Of a DNA stretch of 45,135 nucleotides, positions 27,154-40,837 are shown piece after piece. The notes below the pieces were generated by a model that was given only the letters and a program-made list of their open reading frames with translations, had not been told where the DNA came from and did no database searches. A program made the translations under genes and the position numbers. The first letter of the stretch is position 1. Each line of letters starts with the position of its first letter. The DNA is from Escherichia phage BMA1: sequence record PQ178821.1. The stretch is one strand, 5' to 3'.

Positions 27154-28893
27154 ATGGCAGCGGGTACTCTATCCGTAACGAATAACAGCAAGGCGGTTGT
27201 AGGGGTAGGCACAACGTTTACCGCGTTTAACGCTGGCGACTTCTTAACGCTGGTTGTAGGACAAGTCCCCTACACCGTGGCAATCGCGTCCATTGAAAGC
27301 GACACGTCGCTTACTCTGGTTCTGCCGTTCGACGGCCCAACGGCAACCGGCCTTGCGTGGGATGGCGTTAAGCGCGACACCATGTCCCTGGCAACTATGG
27401 GCGTGACCGTCCAGGCACAGAAAGCATTGCGCTTGATGATTGCGGATGAAAACAACTGGCGTGCAATCTTCGGCGACGCTGAAGAGATCACCATTACGCT
27501 GCCCAACGGGCAAGTTATGCAGGGTATGTCATGGGGCTATCTGTCGCAGTTGATGAAACAGATCGACCCCGTTGAGATGCGCAACCTGCAACAACAAGCC
27601 GCCGCATCGGAAGCAGCCGCGCAAGGATTTCGTAACGAGGCTGAAGGATTTCGAGACGGCGCGCAAGGATACCGCAACGAGGCGCTCCAATTCCGCACCG
27701 ACTGCGAAGGGCTGAAGAACGAAACGACAAACCTTCGCAACGATGCGCTCCAATTCCGCACCGACTGCGAAGGGCTGAAGAACGAAACGACAAACCTTCG
27801 CAACGATGCTAACACAGCTAAGACTGGCGCGGAGACGGCACGCGATCAGGCGCAGAACATCGCCGACGGTATGGACCCTGGCCAGTATATGCAGAAATCC
27901 GCAAACCTGAGCGATGTCGCTGATAAGGCGCAAGGCCGGGCGAATATGGGACTCGGCCCTACCGATGCCGTGGTGTTCGGAGGGGCTACCCTCAACGGTC
28001 CCTCGCGCGTCGACGGACCGCTGTTGCTCGGCAGGCAGCAGTGGGATGGGTCTAGCTGGGGGAGCTACGGACTACAATCGTCATTCGTCATCATGTCGCC
28101 GGATGGAGACTCCGAGCCGGGATTTTACATCAGGCCGCTATCGGGTGCGCCTGGGTACGCAACGTCGTTCACCTATAATCTCGCGATTAATCTTTTCAGC
28201 ACCGGTGCTCGCATCAAGGCGGTTAACTTCTCATCCAGCACTACGACTATGGGTTATAGCGAGATGTGGTCACGTGCATGTTTCCAGGGGCAGCCATACG
28301 ACGCCCAGGCGGGGGTTGAGAACTACCAATCGCTTGTCGCCGGTGCTTGCGGGACTATCGGACAGGGCTTTTACGGTGGCGTTGCGTTCGGCATGATGAC
28401 TTCTGGCAGGGCTGGGTGGCCTGTCGGTCAGATCTCGATCGGCGCACAAGACCGGGCGGCGGACGGCACTATCGGCCTGCAAATGCACTTCCGGTTTCAT
28501 TCATCCGGTAACATTACGTATACGGGGCCGGCGGGGTCGGGGTCATTCCAGCAAATCCCGGCATCTGACCGCAACATTAAGCATGATATTAAAGACGATA
28601 AATCCAGCACAGCATACGATAACATTCGAGCCATTCGATTCCGTAATTTCGTATTTAATGATGACGAGCAGGAGCGTATTCGTCGCGGGATTATCGCACA
28701 GGAGCTTGAAGAAATCGACCCGCTTTATGTTAAGCACCGCGAATACCACAACATGGAGCTTAACGGGCCGAAGATTACGCGACTGGAGCTTGACACGACG
28801 CCGCTGTTACTGGACACAATGCGAGCGTTGCAGGATACGATTAAGCAGGTGGAGGAGTTGAAGGCAGAGATCGCGGCGTTGAAGCAGGCGTAA
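27154..28893 (+). CDS. tail fiber protein with C-terminal S74-type intramolecular chaperone domain (579 aa)
   Basis: Heptad-like FRNEA/YRNEA repeats; SDRNIKHDI autocleavage-type motif near 28561; coiled-coil C-terminus. Confidence 0.85.
   Translation: MAAGTLSVTNNSKAVVGVGTTFTAFNAGDFLTLVVGQVPYTVAIASIESDTSLTLVLPFDGPTATGLAWDGVKRDTMSLATMGVTVQAQKALRLMIADENNWRAIFGDAEEITITLPNGQVMQGMSWGYLSQLMKQIDPVEMRNLQQQAAASEAAAQGFRNEAEGFRDGAQGYRNEALQFRTDCEGLKNETTNLRNDALQFRTDCEGLKNETTNLRNDANTAKTGAETARDQAQNIADGMDPGQYMQKSANLSDVADKAQGRANMGLGPTDAVVFGGATLNGPSRVDGPLLLGRQQWDGSSWGSYGLQSSFVIMSPDGDSEPGFYIRPLSGAPGYATSFTYNLAINLFSTGARIKAVNFSSSTTTMGYSEMWSRACFQGQPYDAQAGVENYQSLVAGACGTIGQGFYGGVAFGMMTSGRAGWPVGQISIGAQDRAADGTIGLQMHFRFHSSGNITYTGPAGSGSFQQIPASDRNIKHDIKDDKSSTAYDNIRAIRFRNFVFNDDEQERIRRGIIAQELEEIDPLYVKHREYHNMELNGPKITRLELDTTPLLLDTMRALQDTIKQVEELKAEIAALKQA
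27682..27807 (+). repeat. perfect in-frame tandem duplication (2 x 63 bp) inside tail fiber gene
   Basis: 27682..27744 identical to 27745..27807; encodes ALQFRTDCEGLKNETTNLRND twice. Confidence 0.8.
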
Positions 28894-28912
28894 GAGTTGA
28901 AGAAATAGGAGA

Positions 28913-28934
28913 GGGGCCGTGCGGCCCCTTTTTT
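28913..28934. terminator. bidirectional terminator between convergent operons
   Basis: GGGGCCG tg CGGCCCC stem with TTTTTT; separates + tail fiber gene and - strand block. Confidence 0.6.
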
Positions 28935-29508
28935 AGTTTGAGTTTTCCCAGTCCATTTTGCGCCGCACCAGGGGGCTTTCGTAGTATTCCTTCCCTTCCA
29001 CTTCCACTAAAGGCCAGTCATTAACAATCACGTACGGTTCCGCGATATCTTCAATCACGCCGTGCGCGTTATGTTGTCCGAAATCTACGCCCACCAGGAT
29101 AACCCCGGCAACTCGACGGGTTAGATACTCACGAGCGCAACGAGCCTCGACCAGTCCGCGACGGATGCCGCTGGTGGCCTTAACCTCATAGGTCCAGACG
29201 GCATCAATCATGTGTTCCCGGAAGTCGGGACCGGACTTAACCTTGCGCTTACCGACCATGATAATATCGCCGCGGTCGATTGTATTAGCACTAAACAGGC
29301 CGGTACGCATTAGCAAACCTTGCGGGATACAGCTACGCCCGCCCGCCTGCCCTTCGAGGTACATGCCTGCAAACATTTCGCCCAGCACACCGACCAGACG
29401 GCTTTGCTTGCACGCGTCGGACTTATACCGCCACTGGTCAAACTCTATGCTTGCGATCATTGCCGCCAGGTGGAATTGTTTACCAGATATTTCATATTCG
29501 CCGTACAT
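28933..29508 (-). CDS. hypothetical protein (191 aa)
   Basis: ORF with GAGGG RBS; D...EVK segment loosely compatible with a PD-(D/E)XK nuclease. Confidence 0.5.
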   Translation of the reverse strand: MYGEYEISGKQFHLAAMIASIEFDQWRYKSDACKQSRLVGVLGEMFAGMYLEGQAGGRSCIPQGLLMRTGLFSANTIDRGDIIMVGKRKVKSGPDFREHMIDAVWTYEVKATSGIRRGLVEARCAREYLTRRVAGVILVGVDFGQHNAHGVIEDIAEPYVIVNDWPLVEVEGKEYYESPLVRRKMDWENSN

Positions 29509-29550
29509 TGTGTTGCCCTCATTGATGCGGGCCGAAGCCCGCGATTAGAA

Positions 29551-30114
29551 TTATTTCAGTGCGCTACGTACCAGTGTTTTTTCCATGTTACGGAAATCTT
29601 CCGGCGTCATGAGGATTTTGGACCCATCTTCGCCGGTGAGCAAGACCATAGGCTGGACTTCTTGGTCTGCAATGCCGAAATTGGCGGCTTTTACAGTCTT
29701 ACCCACCGATGCAGAAGGATTCCACGTCCCCGCGGTGGCGATGGGCCAACCTTTAAGGCTGTCGTATTGCGCTGCCGTTGTATCGACCTGAATCTCGTCG
29801 TGTACGGTCATGTACGACTCGCCCAGCAGGGCGGAGTACGCTACCAGGTCGACGATATTGTCTTCCTGGTGCTTACGGTGCTGGCGCACCAGCTTCAGGC
29901 AGATCAAGAAGGTCCAGGCTTCTTGCTCGGTCAGGTCGCGACCGGTAAGCGCGTTAAACACGGCAGCGATTTGCTTAGCGCTGCGTTCCTCTTTCGCGTT
30001 GTCATAGCCATTTTCTTTCCCGCGCTGTTCCATAGTGGTGGCGGCGTTTTTACAGTATTCGTATGCTTTCACAGTATTACCTTTTTTAGTGAGGGGGCTG
30101 TATTGCCCCGACAC
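29551..30114 (-). CDS. hypothetical protein (187 aa, GTG start; start uncertain)
   Basis: Long ORF; palindromic motif immediately upstream. Confidence 0.5.
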   Translation of the reverse strand: MSGQYSPLTKKGNTVKAYEYCKNAATTMEQRGKENGYDNAKEERSAKQIAAVFNALTGRDLTEQEAWTFLICLKLVRQHRKHQEDNIVDLVAYSALLGESYMTVHDEIQVDTTAAQYDSLKGWPIATAGTWNPSASVGKTVKAANFGIADQEVQPMVLLTGEDGSKILMTPEDFRNMEKTLVRSALK

Positions 30115-30125
30115 GTTTACTATAG

Positions 30126-30147
30126 TGCAACCAACCTATTGGTTGCA
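30126..30147. promoter_or_regulatory. inverted repeat TGCAACCAA-ccta-TTGGTTGCA (operator-like palindrome)
   Basis: 9-bp arms, 4-bp spacer; overlaps stop of upstream gene and precedes start of downstream gene. Confidence 0.45.
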
Positions 30148-30606
30148 AGTGAATTTCGCAACGTTTATTGCGTAAATATTCGGGACCAAATCGCTACACG
30201 CCCGACGGATAGCTGCAATGTTCTTCGGGCAGTCTTCAATGATGACCAGTTCTGACACGTCCGCGTAGCAGACCATTTTGAACACTGCGCACGCCTTAAA
30301 CTCTGGCGGCGGGGTGTCATCCAGCATGTGGCGCATAAACAACCGGCCCGCCGGGAAGACCTCCAATTGCTCGGCGGTGGTGTCCCAACATTCTCGCTGC
30401 CGGTTTGTCAGATACGCTATCTCGAAGCCTTGCTCTTTGTACATGCGCAGCAGCGGCAGCATATCCATGTTCAGATCTTCGCGGACGTGCGCTTTGTGCC
30501 ACTTTGCCCAAAAGGTTGATTTCGTTTTTATCCCCGGCACCAGGTCGGCACGCGCATCGCTTGAACCGTTAATAACGCCATCCAAATCGCAAATCAGTAA
30601 TTTCAT
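30136..30606 (-). CDS. HAD-superfamily phosphatase-like protein (156 aa)
   Basis: N-terminal CDLDGV (HAD motif I-like), downstream YLTNR and ED segments; GAGAG RBS. Confidence 0.45.
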   Translation of the reverse strand: MKLLICDLDGVINGSSDARADLVPGIKTKSTFWAKWHKAHVREDLNMDMLPLLRMYKEQGFEIAYLTNRQRECWDTTAEQLEVFPAGRLFMRHMLDDTPPPEFKACAVFKMVCYADVSELVIIEDCPKNIAAIRRACSDLVPNIYAINVAKFTCNQ

Positions 30607-30827
30607 TTTAAACTCTCAATAAGGGTGTAACGGGCGCTTCGCGCAGTAAAGGAGTTGCACACGAAATGGCAACGCTGAGTCATGACAAGCCAACCGGTGA
30701 GGTCAAGGCCCAGGATGTATTCGGGGCGAGACGCGCGCACTACACGATTGCGTCGCGGATCAATACAGTAGTCTCTTTGCATTTGGTCTACGACCGCAGG
30801 GTCGCGGTCAACGATTAAGATATTCAA
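30603..30827 (-). CDS. small hypothetical protein (start uncertain, TTG in track)
   Basis: ORF bridging HAD-like and Dam-like genes; no clear RBS. Confidence 0.3.
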   Translation of the reverse strand: MNILIVDRDPAVVDQMQRDYCIDPRRNRVVRASRPEYILGLDLTGWLVMTQRCHFVCNSFTARSARYTLIESLK

Positions 30828-31293
30828 GGAGTTCTCCTTCGCTCATTATTTCAATTTGTGCGCTGCCAATGGGTGGCGCTTCGTCAAAGATTATCAATTG
30901 CTGGCACTTGTTATTGCTCGGACCGACTTCGCCGGTGACAGCATGTATAAATCGTATCCGCCAGTCCAGAAGAATTATCAGGTTTGCAGTCTTCCGGGCC
31001 AGCTTCGCCCACTTCGTCGACGTGTCCTGATTCAGTAGCATGACCGTCCGGCGTCCGTGCGCTGCGCACTTGACCCACGGCAGCGGGTCGGAATACGGCG
31101 GATTGCACCACTTCCACCCTTTCAACTCTGCCCAGTCCGCATCAAGCGCGCTATGTTCTGCCGTGAAGTAACGCGGTAGCAGATGATTGGCGTCGCTTGC
31201 CGCCATATCGTAACGGAATCGGAACTTACGGCGCAGCGGTTTAAATAAAGCTGGCGGCGTGCGCCAGCTATCTTTTTGCTCACTCTTCTGCAT
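30808..31293 (-). CDS. DNA N6-adenine methyltransferase, phage Dam-like (161 aa)
   Basis: WRTPP...LF N-terminus, AASDAN and NPPY (CNPPYSD) motifs. Confidence 0.8.
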   Translation of the reverse strand: MQKSEQKDSWRTPPALFKPLRRKFRFRYDMAASDANHLLPRYFTAEHSALDADWAELKGWKWCNPPYSDPLPWVKCAAHGRRTVMLLNQDTSTKWAKLARKTANLIILLDWRIRFIHAVTGEVGPSNNKCQQLIIFDEAPPIGSAQIEIMSEGELLEYLNR

Positions 31294-31744
31294 GATCTGG
31301 ATCTATCGCATACAGGGCAGTCTTTTCGCCTTTCTTCAGGATTCGCAGCAATCGCTGCGTCTCGGAGTCGCCTAAAGGGCGCGCGTCCGGGTAGAAGCTG
31401 CCGTTAGTGTTATTGCGCCACGCCACAAGCACCAGATCTTTCCGGTCGATCTTAGACTGGCGGCCTTTGGGGCGCACGTACTCCTCGGCCCGTTTGCAAT
31501 GCTCGCGCAGCGCATCGGCAGTTACGCGGTTTAGTGCAACGCTGGTTGTATATCCGGTGCGCTGCATAATCCCCATCAATTCGAAAAGCAGTTCGAAGCG
31601 CTCCTCTAACTCCTTGCGCATCTTTTCCTCTCCTTCATAGCTCGCCAGGTAGGTATCCGCCAGCGCGTTCGCCCGTTCGGCTTGCTCGCGGGCTTCGAGG
31701 CATTGCGCGGCCCAGTAATTTTTCTCTTCTTGTAAAATTTTCAT
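31280..31744 (-). CDS. hypothetical protein (154 aa)
   Basis: ORF with GGAGA RBS; charged helical sequence. Confidence 0.5.
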   Translation of the reverse strand: MKILQEEKNYWAAQCLEAREQAERANALADTYLASYEGEEKMRKELEERFELLFELMGIMQRTGYTTSVALNRVTADALREHCKRAEEYVRPKGRQSKIDRKDLVLVAWRNNTNGSFYPDARPLGDSETQRLLRILKKGEKTALYAIDPDHAEE

Positions 31745-34768: not shown

Positions 34769-35338
34769 NACAATAAATCNCNGTCGGCTATGTTGTCGAT
34801 GACGGCCGTAATATTCAACAAGCAACTCAACCACATCGTAGTTAACACAAAACACGTTAGCGTCGCTCTCCAGCGCGGCTATGCTGTCATTTTCTGATCC
34901 TGTTCCGACTACAACCACCAAGGCGGGCACTCGCCATTATTCTTCCTCCGGGGGCNAACGGCAGCGGGTAACTCATGCCAGCAATAAACCACACGCGATC
35001 GCCCGGTTTACATTCGCCCAGCTTGGTGAGCCGGTAATGTTCTTTCATCGTCATGTCTCCCAAAAATGGCGGGACAAGCCCGCCGTATTTATTATTTATT
35101 ATTTTTGTTCCGCACGGTAGCGGCGCTGCCGTTCGCGCTCTTTCTTATTGCGGCACGATTTGCACTCGGCCCGATACCCNGTCGGGGCTACGCGCCGTCT
35201 TACCGGTGTACTTGTGGAACTGGGATAGCGGTTTAACGCAACCGCAATTACTGCAGCGTTTCTCTTCAATCATTTCTAAAATCCTCGTTAGTGCTAACCT
35301 GCTCACTATACTGTTAAGCGACCAATTCAGCAACCAAT
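34769..35338. repeat. low-quality chimeric duplicate of 33.9-34.0 kb and 34.39-34.77 kb, probable assembly artifact
   Basis: Contains ambiguous bases at 34769, 34780, 34782, 34956, 35180; near-identical copies of the 34267 and 34536 genes with scattered mismatches. Confidence 0.6.
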
Positions 35339-35592
35339 AAATCACAGTCGGCTATGTTGTCGATGACGCGAACGTCAGCACCGCGGCGGGCCATTCGCTC
35401 ATGTTCTCGCACCTGGTGCGGCTTCGGTTTTCCGCCGGGGCGCTTCACTTCGACGAACACTATTTTGCCGTTGATGATGATAATCAGATCGGGCGCACCC
35501 GCGCGCCCCTCCCATGCCACTTTACGGCAGAATCCGCCTACCTCTTTCACCCGTCGCATCAGGTGGCTTTGAATCCGGCCTTCGGGTGTCAT
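35314..35592 (-). CDS. VRR-NUC domain nuclease (92 aa)
   Basis: GAPDLIII ... VFVEVKRPGGKP...Q pattern typical of VRR-NUC. Confidence 0.7.
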   Translation of the reverse strand: MTPEGRIQSHLMRRVKEVGGFCRKVAWEGRAGAPDLIIIINGKIVFVEVKRPGGKPKPHQVREHERMARRGADVRVIDNIADCDLLVAELVA

Positions 35593-39171: not shown

Positions 39172-39414
39172 TCAAGCATTTTCATTAAAAAGATTTCTGG
39201 TCACGTAGTTGGTGGCGTTCTCGATCCAGCTTAACGGCGGGCGGTCGATGTTCTTTTTCACCCAATCGACGGCAACTTCGCGATAGCCGTCATCCAGCCA
39301 GCGGGTCGGATGGCGAATCATCCACGCCACCATTAACACGCCTTGCACGCAATGCAGGGTAAATCCCAGCGCACCGAGCAAAAACATCAATAAGATTGCA
39401 AATACTTTATTCAT
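39172..39414 (-). CDS. hypothetical membrane protein (80 aa)
   Basis: N-terminal hydrophobic helix. Confidence 0.4.
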   Translation of the reverse strand: MNKVFAILLMFLLGALGFTLHCVQGVLMVAWMIRHPTRWLDDGYREVAVDWVKKNIDRPPLSWIENATNYVTRNLFNENA

Positions 39415-40837
39415 TGCTTAAGTCCTCGTCAGTAGCTTCCGACCACGCAGGACGCGGGTCGTCGATCGGTGCTAACACCGGTTTTGCGGGTGCGCGTGTG
39501 ATTTTATCACACAGCTTAGCCCACACTTTCGGTTTTTCATCCTTCAGTACCTTCTCGGCATCCGTAGGGCTGAGCAATGTTTCTTTGTACATCACATCAC
39601 GCTTGATCCGGGCCTTCGTGAAGATTTCAATCACTTCGCTCTCGTCCGCCCACTTGCGGATCCCTTCCTTACCGGCAACCATCTTGAGGCCCAGCGATTC
39701 GCCGTCGCCCGCCATTACCGCCTTAAATACCGCGGACTCGATCGCTTTGATGTGCTGGCGCATTGCGTCCAGGCCTTCATAAGCCTTGCGCAATTCCGCA
39801 GCGCTCATAGCACCGGGGGCCGCTTCTTTCCTACCACGCTTCGCACGTCGTGCCGCCTTCCGGGCTTCGCGGGCCATATTGCGGTCATGGTTGGCGCATT
39901 CTTCCTCTGTTGCAATACTCACGTCGTCGCCCAGGTCTTCGTCGGTTGCCGTTGGTGGTGTCATCGTATCGATTGCGGCCTTCGCCCTGGCGCTACACTG
40001 ATCCGCAAATCGACACCACTGGCACGCATCAACGCTGGGGCGGAAGTCGGCACGGGTAAGCCCCTTCTTGCCTCGGGAATACGCCTCCAGTGCGGAAATA
40101 GCGCGCTTGGATGCAAACTTCGCGAATATCTCCAGGGCTTCTACCGTAATATCCCACTCCGACGCCCCGCCGCAATACGGCTGGAAGATAACCAGGCGCA
40201 CGGTCGTAATGTCGTACATAGTTTTCAGCTTGCGCAGCAGGCCGAGCGCATACAGCATGAGTTGTTTGTTTTCTTTCGCCTCGACCTTATGCCGCCCCGT
40301 CTTCAGGTCGCCAACAATCAGCATGTACGTGCCGTCGGTCTTCTTCATGACCATGACCATATCGGCAGTACCGAACGTCTTAACCCGGTTGCCGTCGATC
40401 TCGAATCCTGAATGAAGGACGCGGGTAAGATCGGCGCGCATCTCAAGCTGAACAAACTCCGCCACCTCGAGGAGTGGTCGCCAGTGGTCGATGTACGCGT
40501 CGCACTGTTTCACCATGTCGTCATTGACCAGTACGCCGCCTTTCGGCGCTTTCGGATGTGCCTTCACTGGCCCCTTGCCTTCGTTCTCGACGTAGCACCC
40601 TTTATACGTCTTTGCGGTTATCAGCTTTTCACCGGCGATAATGCGGTTTAGCACCACTTCAGATACGGTGTGCATACTCGTACCGTTAATCGCGGCTTGC
40701 CCGGATTCGTTCGGGATATCTTTTTCCACCACCAGGGCAGCAGGGCAACCCATCCACTTTTTAGCACCGGATGGACCGAGTAATGAATGTTCCGTATTAC
40801 TACCGGATTGTGTTTTGCGCTTCGGTTTAATCGCCAT
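39407..40837 (-). CDS. PD-(D/E)XK nuclease, DUF2800 / Cas4-like with Cys cluster (476 aa)
   Basis: HSLLGPSGAKKWMGCP N-terminus, GDLKTG...EAK nuclease-like motif, C-terminal CQWCRFADQC cluster. Confidence 0.6.
   Translation of the reverse strand: MAIKPKRKTQSGSNTEHSLLGPSGAKKWMGCPAALVVEKDIPNESGQAAINGTSMHTVSEVVLNRIIAGEKLITAKTYKGCYVENEGKGPVKAHPKAPKGGVLVNDDMVKQCDAYIDHWRPLLEVAEFVQLEMRADLTRVLHSGFEIDGNRVKTFGTADMVMVMKKTDGTYMLIVGDLKTGRHKVEAKENKQLMLYALGLLRKLKTMYDITTVRLVIFQPYCGGASEWDITVEALEIFAKFASKRAISALEAYSRGKKGLTRADFRPSVDACQWCRFADQCSARAKAAIDTMTPPTATDEDLGDDVSIATEEECANHDRNMAREARKAARRAKRGRKEAAPGAMSAAELRKAYEGLDAMRQHIKAIESAVFKAVMAGDGESLGLKMVAGKEGIRKWADESEVIEIFTKARIKRDVMYKETLLSPTDAEKVLKDEKPKVWAKLCDKITRAPAKPVLAPIDDPRPAWSEATDEDLSNE

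Follow-up and report, generated by a model that had tools for sequence, protein, structure and literature searches.

Two phage proteins with links to bacterial immunity are the described neighbours of the genes considered here. Ksap1 of phage SECphi18, a protein of 74 amino acids (aa) whose gene is flanked by those of a methyltransferase and a phosphatase, binds Avs2 of Klebsiella pneumoniae (KpAvs2) and activates this immune sensor (PMC11564622), and anti-Tmn proteins are the subject of PMC11846954. The same operon segment holds the subject of this study, three adjacent minus-strand genes in Escherichia phage BMA1 (record PQ178821.1), which we analysed as a single stretch of 45,135 nucleotides (the window). 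We call these genes A (191 aa), B (187 or 173 aa) and C (156 aa). In contrast to Ksap1 and anti-Tmn, they encode other proteins, for which no immune interaction has been reported. The closest described counterparts of A are small PD-(D/E)xK nucleases, those of C are the phosphatase domains of Pnkp enzymes and the class B/C acid phosphatases, and B carries the domain DUF6378. A is predicted to be a PD-(D/E)xK nuclease and C a HAD phosphomonoesterase, and with moderate confidence we read A, B and C as accessory enzymes that serve the nucleic-acid and nucleotide metabolism of the phage independently of one another, and not as an obligate three-part system.

Three conserved genes close the leftward operon

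The window phage is a Dhillonvirus (HK578-like) phage of E. coli, and its annotated relatives have an identical gene order. The 2.1-kb region is present at ~90% nucleotide identity in 158 phage records, 147 of which cover at least 80% of it. Almost all of these are Escherichia Dhillonviruses with genomes of 42-46 kb, HK578, SECphi18 and BASEL Bas14-18 among them, and A, B and C are found in nearly all sequenced members of the genus (>150 relatives). The three open reading frames (ORFs) lie exactly where the initial annotation had placed them (28933-29508, 29551-30114 and 30136-30606). They match PHROG profiles from end to end (phrog_10558 at 6e-120, phrog_9871 at 8e-110 and, for gene C, phrog_415 at 1.8e-36). 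In pairwise comparisons with close relatives, A has a ratio of nonsynonymous to synonymous substitution rates (dN/dS) of 0.04-0.05, C one of 0.03-0.08 and B one of 0.08-0.135, and all three genes are under strong purifying selection. Given the profile matches, the conservation in relatives and the low dN/dS, A, B and C are genuine conserved protein genes.

PHROG scans identify the leftward operon as a replication/recombination module. It encodes an exonuclease, a gp2.5-like single-stranded DNA-binding/annealing protein, a DNA polymerase I, a VRR-NUC-type endonuclease, an SNF2 helicase, a Dcm-like methyltransferase, an HNH protein, a 154-aa protein, a Dam-like methyltransferase and Ksap1, and then C, B and A. 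The three genes had been described as following the Dam-like gene; they do lie downstream of it in that order, but not directly, as the small ksap1 gene, overlooked earlier, intervenes. Their placement at the end of the operon was borne out: a GC-rich hairpin (fold energy -14.8 kcal/mol, z -3.98) divides A from the convergent tail-fibre gene and is the end of the leftward operon. An Rfam scan of positions 28500-31500, with E up to 1, gave no match.

The longest ORF in this interval is on the opposite strand. This antisense frame of 311 aa exceeds A, B and C in length and would be chosen by a naive longest-ORF caller; we rejected it as a shadow ORF, and in relatives it shrinks to 110-210 codons.

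Predicted folds and domains of A, C and B

The AlphaFold model of A is confident (predicted local distance difference test, pLDDT, 82.7; predicted template modelling score, pTM, 0.81) and contains the core alpha-beta-beta-beta-alpha-beta fold. In a 16-sequence alignment that reaches down to 23% identity, E44, D81, E108 and K110 are invariant, and they lie on the canonical secondary-structure elements (Table 1). The initial annotation had pointed to a D...EVK pattern in this protein and guessed at a PD-(D/E)XK fold. The pattern is present, but the conserved aspartate is D81 and not D102; the fold guess agrees with the predicted structure and the four invariant residues. A Foldseek search with the model returned matches that are weak but agree with this fold, to Hjc (E 0.014) and then to HincII and SwaI. 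Among predicted viral structures, A resembles phage proteins of about its own size that are uncharacterised, although two bear the name 'restriction endonuclease'. There was no match to A in Pfam, NCBIfam or PADLOC and no PDB sequence match beyond chance; sequence and profile matches to spectrin SH3 and to a ribosomal protein were dismissed as chance only. A comparison by hhalign of the A family with Hjc (sequence verified as 1gef) gave 0.15% probability. Since no sequence method ties A to a known family, the nuclease assignment rests on the predicted structure together with the motif, and these predict a PD-(D/E)xK fold whose E-D-ExK metal-binding/catalytic set is intact and invariant.

A shares its predicted core, and the E...D...ExK residues on equivalent secondary-structure elements, with I-Ssp6803I (2ost), Hjc (1gef, 2wcw), fusellovirus D212 (2w8m) and influenza PA-N. 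It differs from all of them in having no detectable sequence similarity, in additional N-terminal strand-helix and C-terminal strand and helix elements, and in a basic loop that separates the D81 and ExK strands and varies in length. Homing endonucleases of the I-Ssp6803I type are sporadic, whereas A is a conserved core gene, 95-99% identical in amino acids across the genus (>150 phages) and the most constrained of the three; a homing endonuclease was rejected on this ground. The family is tiny: a set of 5.8 billion proteins yielded 7 clusters at 90% identity and one of 1.84 billion proteins 15 representatives, and an IMG/VR scan with the A alignment returned Dhillonvirus-like contigs only. 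Where A-like genes occur elsewhere, they always stand at the distal end of a replication operon, just before lysis or convergent tail genes, and in two further lineages the A-like gene is downstream of a HAD gene.

The DxDGV sequence that had earlier been taken as HAD motif I in the 156-aa protein is confirmed by its conservation: C6-D7-L8-D9-G10-V11 is invariant in 13 sequences down to 42% identity. The other three motifs are also kept in these homologues, namely motif II at T67 (T or S) within a conserved YL(T/S)NR, motif III at an invariant K104, and motif IV at E124-D125, with an invariant D125 and either E or D at the position before it. Motifs II-IV occur in the correct order with the spacing expected of HAD proteins, and W33, W36, H37, K38, H40 and E43, which follow motif I, are invariant as well. 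Matches to known HAD proteins are weak and consistent. Pfam Acid_phosphat_B reaches 3.7e-5 and 23.8 bits (curated cut-off 27); the HAD-IIIA and e(P4) 5'-nucleotidase models of NCBIfam are marginal, with TIGR01662, TIGR01533 and TIGR01509 far under their cut-offs. The best PDB match of the C family profile, across 54 residues, is the Pnkp1 phosphatase domain (4xrp, E 0.002); the profile also matches a class C acid phosphatase (2i33, E 0.0046), with which the W-x-x-W segment aligns. The only strong match is phrog_415, a non-curated profile labelled 'polynucleotide kinase'; in N4-like phages, distant homologues go under the names nucleotidase or HAD hydrolase, and some depositors label C itself 'nucleotidase' or 'acid phosphatase'. 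On the strength of the four conserved motifs and these consistent matches, we predict C to be a subfamily-III-type HAD phosphomonoesterase in which none of the catalytic motifs is missing. The predicted catalytic residues are present and conserved in both A and C.

Two groups of phosphatases are the obvious points of comparison for C. With the Pnkp 3'-phosphatases (T4 PseT/Pnkp; Capnocytophaga Pnkp1, 4xrp) it shares the DxDx(T/V) HAD acyl-phosphatase signature, a very similar motif-II region and the lack of a large cap. In contrast to T4-type Pnkp, it has neither the N-terminal P-loop 5'-kinase domain nor a ligase partner; with its 156 aa it begins directly with HAD motif I, and an activity on nucleic-acid ends is only putative. 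An RNA-repair role of the T4 Pnkp kind is unlikely, since there is no kinase or ligase partner. The class B/C acid phosphatases and 5'-nucleotidases (Acid_phosphat_B, e(P4), B. anthracis 2i33) likewise belong to HAD subfamily III, and the W-x-x-W helical insert after their motif I aligns with C. The scores against them are all under curated thresholds, however, and C is ~100 residues shorter and a cytoplasmic phage protein with no lipoprotein signal evident at its N-terminus.

C is dispensable for plaque formation in the laboratory, having been lost naturally twice, in viable isolates. In GeorgBuechner (Bas16), a deletion of ~337 bp removes the end of ksap1 and C codons 1-99 (our locus L011, 2300-2760), fusing what is left of ksap1 to the HAD gene from codon 100. 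In SM_A8, a nonsense codon interrupts C at position 119, ahead of motif IV (L017, 3785-4255).

The ORF of B was correctly placed in the initial annotation, but its start is most likely an internal GTG at 30072, which would give a protein of 173 aa: homologues nearly all begin with MKAYEY, GeorgBuechner has an ATG at this place, and an AAGG lies 8-9 nt upstream. The DUF6378 domain (PF19905), not characterised in that annotation, covers residues 30-99 of the 187-aa ORF at 37 bits (cut-off 27.1) and was also matched by all ten of ten diverse family members; its invariant pattern is R-G..(N)GYD...ERS...F...T(E)...W...LK.VR...D...D...Y..L..E. B consists of an N-terminal DUF6378 four-helix domain (86 aa), a variable middle and a fixed 27-aa tail (GEDGSKILMTPEDFRNMEKTLV...). 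Among 100 Dhillonvirus clusters the middle takes 28 lengths between 17 and 86 aa, and both flanking modules are constant. One variant, P0087, duplicates a DEIQIDTTAAQ-DSLKG motif; a tandem-repeat search of the DNA found nothing to account for the length variation. At 90% identity the B family falls into 122 clusters, compared with the 7 of A. No PDB match was obtained with DUF6378 profiles; a match of B to Mycoplasma P46 was spurious, over the low-complexity half, and no search here backs the label 'phosphofructokinase'.

DUF6378 is widespread in phages (338 records). It stands alone in an N4-like phage and is C-terminal in larger proteins of 9NA-like phages, beside which no known partner domain was detected. 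By comparison, the Dhillonvirus protein has, in addition, a unique tether of variable length and a tail of 27 aa. Genes for DUF6378 adjoin dUTPase in phages 9NA and Carvaje and ThyX in phage FP01 and a Vibrio phage, and the same dUTPase/ThyX neighbourhood has been described for DUF1599 ('nucleotide modification associated domain 1'). This shared gene context suggests that the two domains may be related; Pfam gives no DUF1599 match to B.

Table 1. Features of the A-B-C interval and of other genes in the window (positions count from the first nucleotide of the window)
Feature	Position	Strand	Description
Hairpin, GC-rich	28906-28935		between gene A and convergent tail-fibre gene; terminator-like on both strands (terminator scan)
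Gene A	28933-29508	-	191 aa; predicted PD-(D/E)xK nuclease fold
A catalytic candidates	E44, D81, E108-V-K110 (residues)		E44 in helix 34-54; D81 at start of strand 82-85; E108-V-K110 in strand 104-112
Antisense ORF (rejected)	29320-30255	+	311 aa; shadow ORF
B-A intergenic region	29509-29550	-	GCGGGC-UUCG-GCCCGC hairpin; GAGGG ribosome-binding site ahead of A start
Gene B	29551-30072	-	173 aa; ORF open up to GTG 30114 (187 aa)
Region of B with variable middle	29551-29810	-	middle of variable length
C-B intergenic region	30073-30135	-	inverted repeat, sigma-70-like site, second hairpin
Second hairpin	30090-30110	-	GGGGC-AAUACA-GCCCC
Inverted repeat	30119-30148	-	perfect 9-bp arms
Gene C	30136-30606	-	156-aa predicted HAD-superfamily phosphomonoesterase; ORF, motifs, phrog_415
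ksap1	30603-30827	-	74 aa, TTG start, between Dam and C; phrog_10685 at 2.6e-45
154-aa protein gene	31280-31744	-	candidate anti-Tmn homologue
VRR-NUC-type protein	35314-35592	-	92 aa; same operon
Exonuclease	39407-40837		476 aa

Independent enzymes and competing explanations

If A, B and C are independent enzymes, A would cut DNA in a Mg2+-dependent manner, and it could act on the host chromosome or on branched or aberrant replication intermediates. C would dephosphorylate either (deoxy)nucleotides or the 3' ends of nucleic acids, removing a phosphomonoester, and B may be a binding or adaptor protein in a neighbourhood of deoxynucleotide metabolism, the typical setting of DUF6378. We favour this reading because the genes part company: among cultured phages outside Dhillonvirus, A-like genes are found in Klebsiella siphophages (44-48 kb) and C-like genes in N4-like phages (~76 kb), and C has been lost alone.

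Several points weigh against it. The order Dam, Ksap1-like (76 aa), HAD, DUF6378 and A is retained in three relatives of ~55% identity (L003, L004 and L006); this conserved order, together with the HAD/A-like pairs in two other lineages, could reflect a functional linkage. For C, no HAD family model of Pfam or NCBIfam reaches its curated cut-off, and hhalign aligned the C family with verified T4 Pnkp at 32% probability over 35 columns, around motif II only. The AlphaFold model of B is poor (pLDDT 45.7); it suggests four helices, then a stretch without structure and, at the end, a small strand-strand-helix element. We know of no activity for DUF6378. Finally, no published biochemical or genetic study of A, B or C was found in the literature on Dhillonvirus, SECphi18, DUF6378, DUF1599 and Nmad1, in a proteomics study of phage EE09, or in work on ApeA, RAZR and escaper phages; the initial description of the three genes as being of unassigned function agrees with this, no publication testing any of them having come to light.

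Among the rivals, a counter-defence or host-takeover module, the role suggested in the initial annotation, survives best, and even so we consider it unlikely; at least one of the three proteins would then disable an immune system of the bacterium. In such a module C could act on damaged nucleic-acid ends, by repair or dephosphorylation, or break down a signalling or toxic nucleotide that carries a phosphate; A could degrade the DNA of the host or a nucleic acid used in defence; and B could be a decoy or inhibitor whose tether records an arms race. The immediate neighbours lend the idea circumstantial support. Ksap1, whose SECphi18 version triggers KpAvs2, overlaps the start of C, its stop sharing an ATGA with it, and is predicted to be translationally coupled to gene C; at its other end ksap1 overlaps the Dam gene by 20 nt. 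Between the window protein and SECphi18 Ksap1 the identity is 88%; position 30 is V in the former and K in the latter. Bas16, the phage with the deletion described above, was reported among those that fail to trigger KpAvs2. Two genes upstream lies the gene of the 154-aa protein, which is restricted to Dhillonvirus, noticeably variable there (74-91% identity), absent from SM_A8 and present in SM_A2, SM_S24 and Dru_SM5. Since it is missing from SM_A8, occurs in the phages said to carry homologues and is confined to the genus, this protein is probably the anti-Tmn homologue of PMC11846954; the label 'DNA ligase', given to it by PHROG and several depositors, has no support.

The three genes themselves supply further arguments for counter-defence and others against it. 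C is accessory, lost twice, and its weak relative T4 Pnkp is generally known to counter the PrrC anticodon nuclease; C, however, lacks a kinase or ligase to work with in RNA repair. The extreme length variation of B, with its many clusters next to the few of A, would suit a protein in an arms race, but it is limited to a probably disordered linker between fixed end modules, and neutral indel drift fits as well. A, for its part, is among the most conserved genes of the region (dN/dS 0.04), which is atypical of arms-race proteins. PADLOC gave no match for A, B, C, Ksap1 or the 154-aa protein, no literature was found that links A, B or C to a defence system, and no published escape mutant, pulldown or phenotype in Dhillonviruses was found for any of the three.

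A Holliday-junction or branch resolvase that debranches concatemers before packaging, in the manner of T7 endonuclease I or archaeal Hjc, appears somewhat less probable for A. The position at the end of a replication/recombination operon, before the lysis or structural genes, is typical of phage resolvases, and the very strong purifying selection on A also speaks for such an enzyme. The phage, however, already has a VRR-NUC protein with matches to PHROG families that bear the labels endonuclease and Holliday junction resolvase, and A has no sequence similarity to Hjc. In addition, an A-like gene lies two genes downstream of RusA in locus L021. This coexistence with VRR-NUC here and with RusA there argues that A is probably not the main junction resolvase. 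The phage encodes at least two predicted small PD-(D/E)xK-type nucleases besides its exonuclease of 476 aa.

It is more doubtful still that the whole Dam-Ksap1-HAD-DUF6378-nuclease block works as one unit, as a methylation-guided system or a counter-defence module. In the first version, A would degrade DNA that lacks the phage methylation marks, with C and B processing the products; in the second, the module would be sensed by host immunity as Ksap1 is, and the tether of B would evolve under immune pressure. The conserved gene order in the distant relatives is the observation that speaks for such a unit, and the separate occurrence of A-like and C-like genes in cultured phages and the loss of C alone favour independent enzymes instead.

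Least probable is a restriction-like role, in which A would spare phage DNA methylated by the Dam- and Dcm-like enzymes and degrade unmodified host or competitor DNA: in several lineages (Dhillonvirus, L007, L008, L019 and a Klebsiella siphophage with two methyltransferases) the A-like gene does follow a methyltransferase gene at a distance of a few genes, and two structural neighbours of A bear the name 'restriction endonuclease', but methyltransferases are common in phage replication modules, so that adjacency may be a module effect, none lies near the A-like gene in L020 and L022, no sequence-recognition domain is evident in the 191 aa of A, and E. coli K-12 is itself Dam+ Dcm+, as is generally known, which leaves such marks nondiscriminating unless the phage enzymes differ in specificity.

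Intergenic elements and significance

The spacer between C and B holds two elements of possible regulatory interest. One is a perfect 9-bp inverted repeat inside TTGCAACCAATAGGTTGGTTGCA, with the arms TGCAACCAA-TAGG-TTGGTTGCA, which overlaps the stop codon of C as well as the -35 element of a site resembling a sigma-70 promoter (TTGCAA-18-TATAGT); the repeat is unique in the window, where 0 are expected by chance. The second is a further hairpin (Table 1). Both elements are kept in GeorgBuechner, and the spacer folds better than shuffled sequences (z -3.7). Judged from its sequence, the spacer could be an internal promoter/operator or an RNA processing site. The hairpin between B and A, by comparison, has a fold that is not significant against shuffles (z -0.86). 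In the metagenomic relatives L003, L004 and L006, one or two small ORFs (44-101 aa) are inserted between the HAD and DUF6378 genes, at the place that the palindrome and promoter-like spacer occupy in the window.

Some database entries for this region call for caution. The records MG065648.1, OQ221563.1 and NC_024783.1 bear the names 'Campylobacter phage A144' and 'Acinetobacter phage NJ01' and that of phage EK99P-1. The genes of A144 and NJ01 have ~98% protein identity to those of E. coli Dhillonviruses, and host mislabelling or contamination is likely behind these two records. In EK99P-1, the gene A region is labelled 'olfactory receptor'.

A, B and C are ordinary additions to known superfamilies (PD-(D/E)xK nucleases, DUF6378 proteins and HAD phosphatases) in a well-sampled genus, and they change no concept; their value lies in annotation and in providing three candidate enzymes that are easy to test. 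Dhillonviruses are, on the other hand, among the most often isolated coliphages, serving as phage-therapy candidates and as models for defence research (SECphi18, BASEL Bas14-18), and across their 150 or more records these genes are labelled inconsistently, for instance as 'phosphofructokinase', 'polynucleotide kinase', 'acid phosphatase' or 'olfactory receptor'. The motif-based fold assignments improve this annotation. The interval also sits among two immune-linked neighbours, one published and one probable. As a very conserved putative nuclease, A could matter for the fate of host DNA or for the maturation of the phage genome.

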